Source: a virus
Reading direction: 5' to 3' (one strand)
IMG/VR virus record: IMGVR_UViG_3300046665_000589
Location: 29,508-93,507 of that record
DNA: 64,000 nucleotides
Shown here: piece after piece, positions 8,262-14,390 of the stretch
How the letters are laid out: every line of letters starts with the position of its first letter
Position numbering within the stretch: position 1 is the first letter of the stretch
The notes under the pieces: model-generated
What the model was told of the DNA's origin: nothing
Databases searched by the model: none
Seen by the model: only the letters and a program-made list of their open reading frames with translations
Made by a program: the position numbers and the translations under genes

Positions 8262-10025
8262 TTAGGAGAGAACTCGGCCGATGCGCTGCTGCATGCGCGC
8301 GGCCAGCGCCTGGGTGGGGGACTGCTTATCGACGACTTTCAGCGCGACTGCCATCGGGAAGGTGCCAAAGCTCATGTTATGCGAGGCTACCGGCGCCAGC
8401 TCGCAGGCCACGTGCAGGTAGCCCAAGGCGTGCATGTAGTGGTCCTGGCCCTCGTTGGACTTGACCCAGGTCCAGACCAGGTCCATCAGCGAATTCATGA
8501 TCTGCTTGCGTTTCATGTCCAGGCAGTGCTCGACGAACAGGTCGTCCTCGGCGGTGCCGTCGGCCTGCCACAGGATCATGCCGGCCTTGATCTTGAACAT
8601 CACCTCGTCGAAGTTGACGTCGCGGTGGATCTTGGCCTGGTTGATCGGCAGCTTGCCCTCGGCCGGCTCGGCGCCGACCATCACCAGTTCGTAGGTGGCC
8701 AGCTTCTTGTTGCTGTGGTAGACGCCGCCGTACAGGTTCTTGTCGGTCTTTTGCAGCTGGTGCACCAGGTAGGTCTCGGGCTGGCTGTCGATGACCGTCA
8801 TTAAGACCCGAAACTGCTTCTTCAGCTCGTTCTTGCGGGTCGGCAGCTTGGCCAGCAGCACGCGCTCCTTGTGCACCACCAACAAGCGCCCAAGCTCGTC
8901 CTTGCGGCCGACCGCCACCGTGCACATCTGGCCGACGTCGATGCCCATGTTGTGCAGGCTGTTGGAGGCCAGCACGCCGTCGGTGAATTTGCAGGCGGTC
9001 AGGTCGCTGCGAGTGAGCTGGCTCTCGGACTCGTTGGCGGTCTCGCCCAGCGCCTGGTTGACGAACTCGGCCCAGGTCTTGTACTTGGTGATTTCCTGCA
9101 CCAGCGAGGGCACGGTGACCACGTTGGGCACGTCGAACGGGGTGACGTAGTAGCCGATCGCCTCGAAGTTGTCGTTCGGGTTCTCGCAGATCCAGGCGCG
9201 GTGCTCCGGCGCCAGGCTGGGCTCCTCGTCGCAGTGCGGGCAGTGCAGGCGCGCGTGCTGCCAGTCGATGGTCGGCAGGTTGTACTTGGTGATGTCGCGC
9301 AGGCGCCCGCTGTAGCCGGGGATCTTGACGTCGGTGTGAAAGCTCGGCACGAAGGTGTGGCTGCAATGGTGGCAGATCACCGCGCGGCGGTAACGCATCG
9401 CGCTCTTCATGTCCAGCGCGATGCCGTCGTCGTCGATGGTCGGGGTGCCGAACTTGCGGGTCAGCTTGTAGCGCGAGTGCTTGATGCGCGACTGGTACTG
9501 GCCCAAGGCGTCCGGATCTGAGCGGTCGACCTCGTCGTGGATCAGCATGTCGGCCGGCACCGAGATGGCCGAGGTCGTGCCCGAGCAGCCGCGGGTGTAC
9601 AAGAGGCTGGTGCCGATGCCCTTGATCTCGCTGTTGTCGAGGTCGCGGTCGACCACCTCGCGCAAGTCGGGCGACTCGTCGATAATCGGGGTCAGGCGGG
9701 TCTTGGAGAAGTTGGCCGAGTCGGCCGCGAACGGCATCGTCAGGATCACCGAGAAGTACGGCATCACGCGGCAGATCGCCAGCGCATAGCGCGCCATCGC
9801 CTCGGACATGCCGATCTGGGCGCACTTCTGGACGTACACCACGCGGCTGGTGTCGGACAGAATGTCCTTCTGGAATTCGTGGTCGACGAAGGAGAAGCGG
9901 TTGCCCTTGAGGTAGGTCTTGTCCTCGAGATAGCGCACGACGTCGCCCAGGTCGTAGCTGTTGAACAGCGCCGTTTCCAGGCGCGTCAGGTGGGCCCGGA
10001 TTTCGGGATCGTCGACCAGGTTCAT
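8262..10025 (-). CDS. terL: Terminase large subunit, lambda gpA type
   Basis: KCAQIGMSE Walker A variant, LIHDEVD Walker B, GTPT, CHHC/CPHC Zn motifs, GIDVG nuclease motif, DHYMHA. Confidence 0.9.
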   Translation of the reverse strand: MNLVDDPEIRAHLTRLETALFNSYDLGDVVRYLEDKTYLKGNRFSFVDHEFQKDILSDTSRVVYVQKCAQIGMSEAMARYALAICRVMPYFSVILTMPFAADSANFSKTRLTPIIDESPDLREVVDRDLDNSEIKGIGTSLLYTRGCSGTTSAISVPADMLIHDEVDRSDPDALGQYQSRIKHSRYKLTRKFGTPTIDDDGIALDMKSAMRYRRAVICHHCSHTFVPSFHTDVKIPGYSGRLRDITKYNLPTIDWQHARLHCPHCDEEPSLAPEHRAWICENPNDNFEAIGYYVTPFDVPNVVTVPSLVQEITKYKTWAEFVNQALGETANESESQLTRSDLTACKFTDGVLASNSLHNMGIDVGQMCTVAVGRKDELGRLLVVHKERVLLAKLPTRKNELKKQFRVLMTVIDSQPETYLVHQLQKTDKNLYGGVYHSNKKLATYELVMVGAEPAEGKLPINQAKIHRDVNFDEVMFKIKAGMILWQADGTAEDDLFVEHCLDMKRKQIMNSLMDLVWTWVKSNEGQDHYMHALGYLHVACELAPVASHNMSFGTFPMAVALKVVDKQSPTQALAARMQQRIGRVLS

Positions 10026-10195: not shown

Positions 10196-10620
10196 TTCGG
10201 CGTGCCGTCCGCGTTCAGGTAGTCGCTGTAGAGGTCGAAGAACCGGCGCTGCTGCGGCTCGGGCAGATCCTGGAGGGTCTTCATGAAGGCGGCCTCGTAG
10301 CGCTTGAGGCGCTCGGCGTCATACACCACGCCCATTAGCTTGGTCAGCTCCTTGAGCATGGCGCCGACCGAGTTGAACACCTGGGCGCGCTGGTTGGCCG
10401 GCACGTCGTCGTCGTCCTGGATCTTGGCCAGCAGGGCCTTGCCGGCGCGGTACTGCGCGCCCAGCTCGTCGCCCATGTTCAGGCTGCGCGGGTCCAGCTG
10501 CAGCTTCTTGTCGATCTCGTTGCGCAGGCGCAGCAGGTCGTCGTCGCTCAGGTCCTTGAGCAGGTCAACCGCGGGCGCCTTGTCGGGCTTGGGGGCCAGG
10601 CTGTGGTTTTTCAGGGTCAT
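10192..10620 (-). CDS. Putative terminase small subunit
   Basis: 142 aa helical protein upstream of terL. Confidence 0.55.
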   Translation of the reverse strand: MTLKNHSLAPKPDKAPAVDLLKDLSDDDLLRLRNEIDKKLQLDPRSLNMGDELGAQYRAGKALLAKIQDDDDVPANQRAQVFNSVGAMLKELTKLMGVVYDAERLKRYEAAFMKTLQDLPEPQQRRFFDLYSDYLNADGTPK

Positions 10621-10955
10621 GGCTTGGCGTTCCGGTAGCGGTAGATGGTGCGTTCGCTGCAGTGGGCCTGGCGCGCGGCCTCGGTCACGCTCAGGCGAGT
10701 GTCGTCGGTGGCGCGGGTGCGTGCGGCTACTTCGCGGCGCAGCGCTTCACGCGCCTCGAGCAGTTCCATTTCTTCTGGCCGTGACCGTTTGCCCTCGCGG
10801 GACGGCGGCGGCTGGCGCTGCACGTCCATTTTCTTGAGCAGGCGGCAGATGTGGCCCTCGGATACGCCCAGTTTGCGTGCGACGTCGCGGTTGGTCAGCT
10901 CGCGGCGGACGATGGCGGGGATGAGCGGCTTGAGCCGGTCGCGTAGGGTTTCCAT
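10617..10955 (-). CDS. Tandem helix-turn-helix DNA-binding protein
   Basis: LTNRDVARKLGVSEGHICRLL and LSVTEAARQAHCSERTIYRYR; ATG 10955 lies 6 nt after TTGGCA-N17-CATACT (leaderless). Confidence 0.75.
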   Translation of the reverse strand: METLRDRLKPLIPAIVRRELTNRDVARKLGVSEGHICRLLKKMDVQRQPPPSREGKRSRPEEMELLEAREALRREVAARTRATDDTRLSVTEAARQAHCSERTIYRYRNAKP

Positions 10956-10980
10956 GCAATAAGTATGCCAGCTTTGTCGG

Positions 10981-11095
10981 GATTTGCCAATTTTGTGCAA
11001 AAGTTGCGCAAAATTTTCAAAAATTTTTGAAAATCGGGTGGTTTTGGCTGTTTTGTTGCAGAAAAGCAACAAAAAGTTTGAAAAATTGCTGGAAA
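10981..11095. repeat. A/T-tract region with a perfect 22-bp palindrome (11013-11034); probable packaging/terminus zone
   Basis: ATTTTCAAAAA|TTTTTGAAAAT plus two more inverted repeats; lies at the late/early divergence next to terS. Confidence 0.6.
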
Positions 11096-11335
11096 TGGCG
11101 GAGGGACCTGGTAGGCCAGGCGCCGGCAACAGGCCAAAAGCTCCTATACGTCACCCAAGGCACGATCGGCACCGCCCGCGTGCGTTCCGTCGTCCGGGTT
11201 CGCGCGCCCCGCCACGGGCCTAAAAACGGCCTTGCTGGGCGTGGCACACTTCTTGCTTTAACCGGCCGGGCCATAGGCTAGGCCTATCAACTTGACAGTG
11301 GCCATAGCCTGGCACAGTTCATGCTTAAGCGCCGC

Positions 11336-11410: not shown

Positions 11411-11634
11411 GCGCCAGCCGACCTCGCCAGCCGACCCGTGCGGCCGCACGATAGGGAAAAGCTATCACCCCGATTAATAAAATAAATTGGTAAAAGTAAG
11501 TTATTCCCGGCATACTAAGGGCTCAGTAGCGGTGCGGCTGGTCCGGCGCACCGTGGGCGCTAGCTTTTGCCCCTGTAGTTTCCCATAACCGTTGTCCGGC
11601 GCACTGTGCGCCATCTATCCAAGGAGCCCTTACC

Positions 11635-12330
11635 ATGAAACTCACCCACATCTCCGCTGTCCTGTTGTCGCAATTCGTCGCTGCCGATGCCGGTTCAGTC
11701 GAAGCGCAACACGATGCCCGCTTGTGCGCCGTCTATACCGCCTACCGCACCGCCCTCAAGGACGGCAACAAAACCCAGCTGATGCTTGTGCAGGCCGCGT
11801 GCGACAAGTACGCCACGCCCAAGGCTTGCTTGGAACTGGTTGGCGCGGCCAAGGTCAACGCCGCTGCGCGCCGCGCCCATGCCACTTATGCAGCCTACAG
11901 GCTGGCGCTGGCGCAGGTTGGCATTCCGTCGCTGATGAAGGGCGCGGACATTGACGCGGTCGAAGCGCAGGCGGCGGCGCTGGCCGGGGAATTCGTCGAA
12001 GTCATCACGGTAGCGCTGACGCCCGAAACCAAGCCGGAAGCATCGGCAGAAGAAAAGGCAGCGGCCAAGGCCGCCAAGGAAGCGGAAAAGGCCAAGGCCG
12101 CGAAGGAAGCGGAGAAAGCGCACCGTGCGGAGGTGCAGGCAGCGGCGCAGAAGATCGCCGAAACCAACGCGCTGACCTTGGACGACATGGCGCGCGCCGT
12201 CATCAACGCCATGCGCGCCGGTGCGCTGTCGGCGGAACTGTTGCAGGAGCTCGACAGCGCGCTGGACGCAGTGGCCGCTACGGTCGTGCCGGTTGTCGTC
12301 AAAGTCGAGCCGGAACACGCCCCGACCTGA
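11635..12330 (+). CDS. First early gene, Ala/Lys/Glu-rich hypothetical protein
   Basis: AAGGAG RBS; AT-rich promoter-like region ending CATACT at ~11511. Confidence 0.75.
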   Translation: MKLTHISAVLLSQFVAADAGSVEAQHDARLCAVYTAYRTALKDGNKTQLMLVQAACDKYATPKACLELVGAAKVNAAARRAHATYAAYRLALAQVGIPSLMKGADIDAVEAQAAALAGEFVEVITVALTPETKPEASAEEKAAAKAAKEAEKAKAAKEAEKAHRAEVQAAAQKIAETNALTLDDMARAVINAMRAGALSAELLQELDSALDAVAATVVPVVVKVEPEHAPT

Positions 12331-12336
12331 TCCGCT

Positions 12337-13040
12337 TGCCCCGCATGGGGCATTTACCAAGGGCCGCGCGCCCTTGGTAAGTGTCTCAAGTCCAAGCATA
12401 GCGCTTGGCCGCGTCGGGTTCCCGCTTCGCTGGCGTCGCTTCGCCACTGTCGCGTGTCTCCTTCGTGTCGCTCTTAGCTGGCAGCAGTCGCGCCAGCAGA
12501 CAATTTGATCCCGCCAACCTGACGCCAGTCGCGCCAGTGTCGCGCCCTTGCTTCGCGCCGTTTCCCTCGGTAGCGTCGCTTGGAGCGCTTCATGGGCAAC
12601 GCTGGCAGGGCGCGGGAATTGAAGCTTAAAAGCAAGAGTAGATATCGGTACAGTCAGCTAGATGAACGATGATATCGGATTGCGGAGCATAGAGCATTGA
12701 CGCGGGCAGCAACTAGGCCAGCGCACAGCGCGCCGACAGTGATACGGTCGGCTACAGGGTGGGCCAGCAAGGTCATACCGCAGCGCGTAGATGCCTGATC
12801 CTTCGGGAGCTAAACCGGCCACACCGGGCACGCAAATAACGCTAGTCACTGGACACATTCGATCCTTGCCAAGGCCAGCCACATCGGCTGGCAAATCCTA
12901 GACGGCATGCAAGCCGGACTAGGCCGCGATGAGCGGGACCGCTTTGGCAAGCGGCCATACGCCTTGCCCTCCCCGGCGTCGAAATAGGGGAGGGGGAATA
13001 CCCTGCGCATTGTGGACTGTTCAGTGCGCAGTCATTCCAG
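12337..13040 (+). ncRNA. Candidate large structured non-coding RNA or structured leader
   Basis: ~700 nt without a credible ORF; long hairpins, a multibranch junction (12865-12951) and an H-type pseudoknot (12959-12994). Confidence 0.5.
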
Positions 13041-13053
13041 ACAGGAGGACCAC

Positions 13054-13362
13054 ATGGACCTGCAATCGGCCTTGCGCGGCATCCTGCCGCAGATCACGCC
13101 AGCAACACCGGCAGCACCGGCCAAACCGAAGGCGAAGGCGAAGGCGAAGGCGAAGGCGAAACTGCCGCGGCGCCTGGCCGTCGGTAGTTTCGACTGCGGC
13201 CGCAAGGCGTTCGACACTACCGGCACGGTCGGCCGCTTCGACCCGAGCCGGCCGCCGCCGGTGCACCCGCCCGGCTATTCCGAGCACCGGTGCGACCCGC
13301 ACCGCATCCACCTGAGCACCACCCGCGCGCTGCGCCTGTGGTCGAAAACCGAAGTCAAATAG
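13054..13362 (+). CDS. Basic hypothetical protein with a (KA)n run
   Basis: AGGAGG RBS; (GAAGGC)5 in-frame repeat. Confidence 0.65.
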   Translation: MDLQSALRGILPQITPATPAAPAKPKAKAKAKAKAKLPRRLAVGSFDCGRKAFDTTGTVGRFDPSRPPPVHPPGYSEHRCDPHRIHLSTTRALRLWSKTEVK

Positions 13363-13924: not shown

Positions 13925-13979
13925 GGACGAAACCCGGCCGCGCGCCGGGTCTGTGCGTGTGACGCACACTGACGAGTCC
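13925..13979 (+). ncRNA. Type II hammerhead ribozyme
   Basis: GGAC-GAAA-CCCGGC(cgcgc)GCCGGG-UC^-UGUGCGU(gug)ACGCACA-CUGACGA-GUCC: all core nucleotides and three stems present, open at stem II. Confidence 0.92.
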
Positions 13980-13998
13980 ACCCACCACGGAGCCCACC

Positions 13999-14298
13999 AT
14001 GACCACCCAAATCACCACCTTCAACACCGGCCGCCAGTACAGCGACAAGGGTCAGCGCATCGCCTGCGCGCTGCTGCCCGACGGGCGCGTGATGTTCGCC
14101 GACGTCGACCGCAACCTCGACGGCATCACGCAGGGCGCCATTGCGCCCGGCTTGCAGGCCGGCGCCGACCTGCGCGAGTTCGTGATGAACTCGTACGACT
14201 ATGGCGCGTACAACAGCGGCTGCCACGAGTGCACCAGCGGACAGGCCGCCCGCGACCAGATGATGGCCGAACTCAAGGCCGCAGCACTGAAGCTGTAA
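13999..14298 (+). CDS. Hypothetical phage protein (FNTGRQYSDKGQRI motif)
   Basis: GGAG-CCCACC-ATG start immediately 3' of the ribozyme. Confidence 0.75.
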   Translation: MTTQITTFNTGRQYSDKGQRIACALLPDGRVMFADVDRNLDGITQGAIAPGLQAGADLREFVMNSYDYGAYNSGCHECTSGQAARDQMMAELKAAALKL

Positions 14299-14390
14299 CC
14301 AGACAGCAACACCCGAGCAACAAGGCCGCCGCGAGCGGCCATTTTTACGCCACCATGAAGACACTCATCCAAAAAATACAGGGAGGCATC

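Follow-up and report, generated by a model that had tools for sequence, protein, structure and literature searches.

Behind the first rightward gene (X, 11635-12330) of the phage genome studied here lies a gap of 724 nt, running from the X stop codon at 12328-12330 to the ATG of the second rightward gene (Y, 13054-13362), and we asked what such a gap encodes, and whether it acts within the message that carries it or as a molecule of its own. The initial annotation had taken it for a large structured RNA. The source record, IMGVR_UViG_3300046665_000589, is 93.5 kb long and is rated complete by CheckV; the window, by which we mean the whole 64,000-nt stretch of DNA analysed, comprises bases 29508-93507 of that record, and positions are those of the window unless another locus is named.

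A gene-free gap between the first two rightward genes

Virion genes of the phage are read leftward and the genes from 11635 onward are read rightward, so that the gap is framed by the following features:

8262-10025, leftward: large terminase
10617-11129, leftward: helix-turn-helix protein, possibly the small terminase
11487-11492 and 11511-11516, + strand: sigma-70-like promoter by consensus match (-35 TTGGTA, 18-nt spacer, -10 CATACT)
11635..12330, + strand: gene X, 231 aa, an all-helical predicted protein, mildly acidic
13043-13048, + strand: ribosome site AGGAGG
13054-13362, + strand: gene Y, 102 aa, very basic (pI 10.8)
13925-13986, + strand: type II hammerhead-like motif (29.6 bits, E 0.0018, below the Rfam gathering score of 37)

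The stretch 12331-13053 is non-coding, as had been proposed for a gap of about 700 nt. In this genome of 63-65% G+C the genes flanking the gap showed the usual excess of G+C at codon position 3, and codon periodicity was absent over 12310-12850 (the three phases differing by no more than 0.2 in G+C by codon position). ORFs within 12331-13053 were short, with rare starts and odd composition, and none was plausible. No promoter or terminator site was found within the gap by scanning, a tRNA/tmRNA search returned nothing, with no tRNA gene in the 64-kb window, and no second copy of the RNA was present in the phage's own 93.5-kb record.

Homologous gaps and covariation

A terminase search retrieved 34 IMG/VR loci, 19 of them 52-81% identical, and blastn revealed a conserved nucleotide core (window 12893-13036) that was syntenic in ten relatives, each of which displayed an upstream gene ending where X ends, then a gene-free stretch of about 450-820 nt, then a ribosome site. 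At the DNA level most of the flanking protein genes could not be detected, the RNA core being better conserved. In at least 12 related IMG/VR phages, 85-93 kb in size, an equally gene-free stretch homologous to the RNA occupies the corresponding position, giving a family of 13 loci from few lineages, within one clade of uncultivated soil and rhizosphere phages. Among 50,697 GenBank phages no match to the gap or to X was obtained by blastn and tblastn, and terminases were at most 32% identical; single flanking proteins used as queries in IMG/VR viral contigs returned nothing. Four rhizosphere DNA runs contained identical, low-depth contig pieces only, with no variants.

A DNA pattern of the 3' domain, made from its invariant positions, recovered 11/11 known copies and gave 5 extra matches in IMG/VR, at least 120 in species genomes and 76 in JGI/ENA metagenome contigs. 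The extra matches lay in coding sequence and had no hairpin complementarity, which marks them as chance, and the sole true one, L196, is the same contig as L007. No prophage copy was seen in 185,579 species genomes among the matches listed for this exact pattern, which would miss a diverged one.

Three covariance models were built from main-clade relatives only, with the window held out, and all three matched it:

12893-13040: R1, 3' domain, 149 positions, 60.1 bits, E 3e-16 (L006 75 bits, L007 61 bits)
12326-12478: R2, 5' domain, 183 positions, 47.8 bits, E 1e-11
12538-12593: R3, domain II, 172 positions, 38.6 bits, E 1e-7, at model positions 45-99 (L012 71 bits)

Two new loci, L016 (49.5 bits) and L019 (35.5 bits), were added by R2, which also matched L006 and L007; none of R1, R2 and R3 matched in L003-L005, L010, L017, L018 or L021-L036. 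Pairing in the three alignments was then compared with shuffled and slid controls:

3' domain (alignment A7): 94.1% of cells paired; shuffled 77.2%; slid 33-43%; both-sided change in 29/45 pairs
5' domain (A10): 90.6% of cells paired; shuffled 66.5%; slid 29-45%; both-sided change in 39/49 pairs
Domain II (A12): 89.4% of cells paired; shuffled 71.8%; slid 30-48%; both-sided change in 23/35 pairs

Percentages of paired cells are inflated here, since the counted alignments were fitted to the models, and both the margin over the slid controls and the distinct pair types go far beyond a model-fitting effect. Compensatory change was found in 91/129 modelled pairs of the three domains. Covariation scores exceeded those of shuffled alignments (0.482 vs 0.178 for A7, 0.583 vs 0.202 for A10, 0.402 vs 0.166 for A12), with 0/500 shuffles of each alignment attaining any observed measure and slid controls scoring 0.118 or less, and RNAalifold on plain MAFFT alignments gave compensatory pairs at 22/35, 28/49 and 20/35. 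Covariation among homologues, the check that the initial annotation had suggested for its candidate, was far above both kinds of control.

G.U pairs occupied 108 cells of the three alignments and A.C pairs 27, an excess showing that the folded strand is the + strand, the sense of X and Y, and bearing out an earlier argument from G-U-tolerant pairs. Folding energy against dinucleotide shuffles, also suggested at the outset, gave a mixed answer: the whole gap was more stable than shuffles on the + strand (z -3.25), whereas the - strand was similar (z -2.88; 20 shuffles each) and the middle part, domain III alone, reached only -0.77. The 5' domain gave z -4.02, domain II -1.77 and the 3' domain -2.92, and the minimum free energy (MFE) fold of the isolated 3' domain recovered the comparative helices. 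As the two strands score alike, energy decides little, and it is covariation that carries the case.

No model of Rfam 15 (4227 models, including GOLLD, ROOL, OLE, HEARO, raiA, group I and II introns, RNase P, tmRNA and 6S) reached its gathering score in the window. With matches up to E 10 admitted, the gap drew chance-level ones only (COG3860 16.5 bits, Mu-gpT-DE 15.8 bits), and the relatives L013 and L016 drew only miRNA/sRNA-like hairpin noise far below threshold. The RNA is a new family, not in Rfam, which agrees with the initial annotation's failure to recognise a known one in it.

Fold of the RNA, domain by domain

The RNA begins 8-10 nt past the X stop and stops about 5 nt short of the next ribosome site. 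Its parts in the window are:

12338-12351, + strand: H1 (GCCCC/GGGGC), starting 8 nt after the X stop
12352-12382, + strand: H2, long hairpin TTACCAAGGGC/GCCCTTGGTAA (A10 helix 1, 17/20 pairs changed on both sides)
12392-12408, + strand: H3, hairpin CCAAGC-AUAGC-GCUUGG
within 12326..12478, + strand: H4, long irregular hairpin with top UGGCG/CGCCA
12326..12478, + strand: 5' domain, comprising H1, H2, H3 and H4 (R2 match, A10 covariation)
12538..12593, + strand: domain II core, nested stems (R3 match, A12 covariation)
12650..12860, + strand: variable domain III, type B, homologous to L011 only
12893..13040, + strand: 3' domain (R1 match, A7 covariation)
12897-12923, + strand: Pa, CCUAG../..CUAGG
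12924-12936, + strand: Pb, CCGC/GCGG with loop GAUGA
12939-12954, + strand: Pc, ACCGCUU-UGGC-AAGCGGU with invariant UUUGGCAA, kept in 11/11 copies of the 3' domain
12959-12963 with 12975-12979, + strand: pseudoknot stem 1, ACGCC/GGCGU
12967-12974 with 12987-12994, + strand: pseudoknot stem 2, CCCTCCCC/GGGGAGGG
12995-12999 with 13034-13038, + strand: Pf
13004-13010 with 13025-13031, + strand: Pe, CTGCGCA/TGCGCAG (9/10 pairs compensatory)

All sequence elements that the initial annotation had named are present in the window, and most of them recur as conserved parts of the family: its first hairpin is H2, its hairpin ahead of the next ribosome site is Pe, and its nested stems at about 12540-12615 are the core of domain II. 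The multibranch junction that it had drawn at 12865-12951 survived in part. The hairpins Pa and Pb are supported by A7, while CCAGCC/GGCTGG was found in the window only and the closing helix CTTGCCAAGG/CTTTGGCAAG was not supported: this complementarity is present, also in the MFE fold of the window, but its 5' arm has no counterpart in relatives and its 3' arm is taken up by Pc, whose loop and stem are invariant.

Across the family H2 is 17-21 bp long and H3 is a two-part hairpin with the loop CA(C/G/U)AACGC, and a conserved single strand, CUUUAACAAU, follows H4. In the main clade a 10-bp hairpin, 8 of its pairs compensatory, comes after domain II. Domain III has a closing helix of 8 bp; type B, as in the window, is closed by CAGU..GCUAG (12651-12661) paired with CUAGU..ACUG (12843-12853), and the two-sequence consensus fold of the window and L011 holds 46 pairs in this domain, 11 of them changed on both sides, closing helix included. 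With a single homologue, and folding no better than shuffles, the domain III of the window is the least certain part of the RNA. L012 (3259-3724, - strand) is cleanly without this domain (about 260 nt), has an RNA of about 460 nt and keeps the 5' domain, domain II and the 3' domain, making it a natural domain-deletion variant; a closed domain that is missing in L012 and exchanged between types is as expected of a modular RNA.

The 3' domain consists of three hairpins with invariant loops (GAUGA and that of Pc among them), an H-type pseudoknot and a long terminal hairpin, and the position of the invariant loops between covarying stems suggests that they make specific contacts. In the main clade the terminal hairpin contains an inner hairpin with the loop GGUUGAUACG, which is absent from the window and L006. 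Pf ends 5-10 nt ahead of the Shine-Dalgarno sequence in every copy, and the ribosome site is never part of the conserved pairing.

The pseudoknot, proposed at the start from complementarity in the window, was confirmed, with both stems covarying. Stem 1 was paired in 98.2% of cells. Stem 2 is formed between the 3' end of the stem-1 loop and the bases directly after a conserved AAUA; in a fixed register 46/55 of its cells were paired, compared with 33.8 +/- 3.0 for shuffled partners (0/2000 partner shuffles attaining the observed value), with compensatory change in 5/5 positions. Eight different sequences were found for it among the 11 copies, each with its complement (CCCUCCCC, UUUACCG, UUUCCC, GUUCC, GUCCC, UGUCC, UCUCG and GACUG).

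A candidate kissing contact was also seen, between the H3 loop CA(C/U)AAC and the GUU(G/A) loop of the inner 3' hairpin. L020 changes both sides of this candidate (UAAC with GUUA) and three sequences would mismatch; the window and L006 are without the inner 3' hairpin and have a different H3 loop.

Gene X, the proposed early transcript and the possible role of the RNA

An X-type gene stands directly upstream of the RNA in 13/13 loci, ending within a few bases of the RNA start, and the RNA is linked to this gene: X sequences have diverged to the limit of detection, yet the linkage is constant. The X1 subfamily was found in ten loci and X2 in L007, L016 and L019, the two being homologous (hhalign probability 96%, E 3e-9). 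X proteins have a pI of 5.2-5.9, and the AF2 model of X is helical (pLDDT 73). X gave no Pfam or PHROG family match and no PDB sequence match, its AF2 model gave no PDB fold match, and the ESM Atlas returned nothing. Homologues of X fell into 37 clusters from metagenomes, every one hypothetical and some of them 45-69% identical to the X of the window, and an alignment-based search of IMG/VR viral contigs with X returned only loci already in the set.

The promoter upstream of X is preceded by an A/T-rich tract, and its layout (TTGnnn, 17-18 nt, CATAAT) aligns in L006, L008 and L011-L014. Its conservation places X and the RNA as the first items of the rightward unit, with the start assigned by consensus match. 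The "early" character proposed in the initial annotation fits this placement, in what appears to be the first transcription unit behind a conserved host-type promoter. The 60 nt preceding the X start (11577-11637) are 88% identical even in L003 and L004, which have another X type.

Downstream of the RNA the genes vary. The Y of the window resembles only the gene in the same position of L006, and weakly (E 5e-5), with no demonstrable relationship to the Y of the main clade. Only in 8 loci was main-clade Y found; a query with it matched none of the genes behind the RNA in L007, L016 and L019, and in L009 and L012 an additional ORF lies between the RNA and Y. A 12-nt tandem repeat within Y of the window (13119-13160, + strand) encodes a (Lys-Ala)n run. 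The hammerhead-like motif lies between two small early genes, 0.9 kb downstream of the gap. A G+C-rich palindrome at 14324-14340, with a T run on the + strand (weaker on the - strand), follows the gene at 13999-14298, and may be the end of a unit holding X, the RNA, Y and the hammerhead.

We favour, with a probability of about 0.6, the reading that the gap gives rise to a large "ornate" ncRNA that is cut from the early X transcript and is functionally tied to X. The first early transcript would run from the host-type promoter through X and the RNA to Y; since there is no room for a separate promoter between the X stop and the ribosome site, the RNA would be made within that transcript. By analogy with T7 early RNA, cuts at its long terminal hairpins would probably set it free, and it would act as a folded molecule, probably with X and perhaps with the small basic downstream protein, as an early-expressed particle and not as a switch for the next gene. 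As X is acidic and has no recognisable RNA-binding fold, a direct complex of X with the RNA is only a guess from gene linkage; caution over X as an RNA binder is warranted by this acidity, and the basic Y may be an alternative partner. It is a more speculative, rather doubtful extension that X, the RNA and perhaps the small basic downstream protein make up a dedicated particle of the first minutes of infection, which could be an RNA machine, a cage or a ribozyme, serving host takeover or acting against host defence. The suggestions of the initial annotation, that the RNA is a decoy, scaffold or ribozyme and is linked to the hammerhead downstream, are likewise guesses.

In T7 early mRNA, RNase III hairpins lie between the genes, and the spacers are single hairpins of 30-60 nt. 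The likeness to the present locus lies in long hairpins set immediately behind a stop codon and immediately ahead of a ribosome site, in an early transcript of the host polymerase, and H2 and Pe/Pf could serve like the T7 RNase III hairpins; the T7 spacers differ in having no 700-nt multi-domain fold with a pseudoknot and invariant loops.

That the RNA is never free, and acts in cis as an intercistronic leader of a polycistronic early mRNA, stabilising the X message, insulating the next ribosome site or setting downstream translation, we regard as unlikely. Such a leader would account for the exact filling of the spacer between X and Y and for the constant 5-10 nt between Pf and the Shine-Dalgarno sequence, and neither an own promoter nor a clear terminator was seen in the window; a 3' domain that always abuts the ribosome site also fits a cis role. 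However, the RNA is ten times larger than known bacterial leaders and stays while the downstream gene varies, there being no constant downstream gene family across the loci of the kind that marks a cis leader or riboswitch. Its conserved pairing leaves the ribosome site out in all copies, whole domains are swapped or lost with the 3' end untouched, and the invariant loops point to contacts in trans. Four features favour a folded RNA tied to X over a leader of Y: its linkage to X, its indifference to which gene follows, the invariant loops and the modularity of the domains.

A dedicated protein gene adjoining the RNA, as found here with X, is also the arrangement of OLE (RF01071) and its Oap proteins. 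OLE is an ornate RNA of about 600 nt whose gene lies beside those of dedicated partner proteins, with which it forms a particle (PMC9723947 and PMC12265935). Both are large ornate RNAs; OLE differs in being a chromosomal RNA of Gram-positive extremophiles and anaerobes with membrane partners, whereas X is a soluble-looking helical phage protein, and the two RNAs have no sequence similarity. Here a partnership of the RNA with X is putative, drawn from gene linkage.

GOLLD (RF01998) and ROOL (RF03087) are ornate RNAs carried by phages and prophages, and together with OLE they make up the small group nearest in kind to the present RNA. Both are phage-borne and form nanocages (bioRxiv 10.1101/2024.12.08.627333). 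Like the present RNA they are several hundred nt long and phage-carried, with many covarying helices, pseudoknots and a conserved part beside a variable part (bioRxiv 10.1101/2024.12.08.627333). In an assembly of RNA only, copies would join through loop-loop and A-minor contacts to build a cage or scaffold, with X a mere neighbour. Such a reading is suggested by the RNA's size, its ornate fold of several domains and its origin in phages, as well as by the invariant loops and the numerous A-rich single strands, but seems to us quite improbable. The GOLLD and ROOL models match neither the window nor its relatives, there is no sequence or model similarity to OLE either, and no self-complementary conserved loop was seen by eye. 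GOLLD and ROOL often lie beside tRNA islands, whereas no tRNA gene lies near this RNA within the 64-kb window, and it sits within an operon, immediately between one conserved protein gene and a ribosome site, a strict linkage to X that RNA-only assembly leaves unexplained.

Compared with structured-RNA candidates of IMG/VR viruses, which were 29-151 nt long (Fremin, Bhatt, Kyrpides 2023, PMC10690425), the RNA comes from the same source and was recognised by the same logic, covariation in intergenic regions. It adds a family that is unrelated to known large phage RNAs, and extends the carriage of such RNAs to high-G+C soil phages, beyond gut and aquatic ones. Three handles for further work are provided by the fixed place in the first early unit, the protein gene that is never absent and the natural variants with lost or swapped domains; GOLLD and ROOL offer no comparable ones. 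To our knowledge few RNAs of this size and complexity are described in bacteria or phages, and we know of no phage-borne one with a known function. If the particle suggested above were real, no large ornate RNA of phages before it would have combined a defined time of expression with an obligate protein partner that co-evolves with it, and the long-standing question of the roles of ornate RNAs would become directly testable.

A large ribozyme or self-processing RNA, intron-like or self-cleaving, has a complexity comparable to that of the RNA, and the hammerhead-like motif (13925-13986) lies in the same operon; with the group I, group II, RNase P and small-ribozyme models all giving no match, we consider this highly improbable. 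A self-splicing intron was rejected: in the ten loci of type X1 the X gene closes with a stop codon (TGA/TAA), and the gene after the RNA is equipped with its own Shine-Dalgarno sequence and start codon. No exons are left to be joined, since X has a stop codon and Y starts from an ATG with a separate ribosome site.

To a single-stranded DNA structure or primer RNA of a replication origin, in place of an ncRNA, we give hardly any chance. The gap does lie near the strand switch of the genome and holds short direct repeats (GTCGCG-type), and a site of single-strand initiation would be well served by strand-specific folding. Against an origin speak the pseudoknot, the more than 25 helices and the G.U pairs kept in evolution; the site has no iteron array, AT-rich unwinding element or replication genes, and an AT-rich repeat region at 15.4-18 kb seems the more origin-like place. 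A neutral spacer or decayed gene, its hairpins arising by chance from high G+C, would fit the modest folding z-scores, alike on both strands, and is already refuted by the 91 compensatory pairs, the held-out model matches (E 1e-7 to 3e-16) and a nucleotide core better conserved than the flanking genes, which leave it practically no probability.

In L016 (3150-3780, - strand) and L003 (1540-2300, - strand) the gap ends with one or two G+C-rich hairpins and a U run, resembling a terminator and standing just ahead of the next ribosome site, where the window copy has no U run; this ending fits a discrete RNA 3' end. The same stretch of L003, together with L017 (2840-3820, - strand) and L018 (2880-3780, - strand), displays an X2-type gene followed by a gap of 700-950 nt. 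No convincing ORF was found in the gaps of L003/L004, L017 and L018, and similar long hairpins were seen by eye at their start, that of L003 sharing a CGUG apex with H2 and one of L017, with the loop GCACAACGA, resembling H3. The gaps in L003, L017 and L018 may be further subtypes of the same RNA, and from this comparison by eye the whole clade may carry the module of X and RNA, the RNA itself diverging fast.
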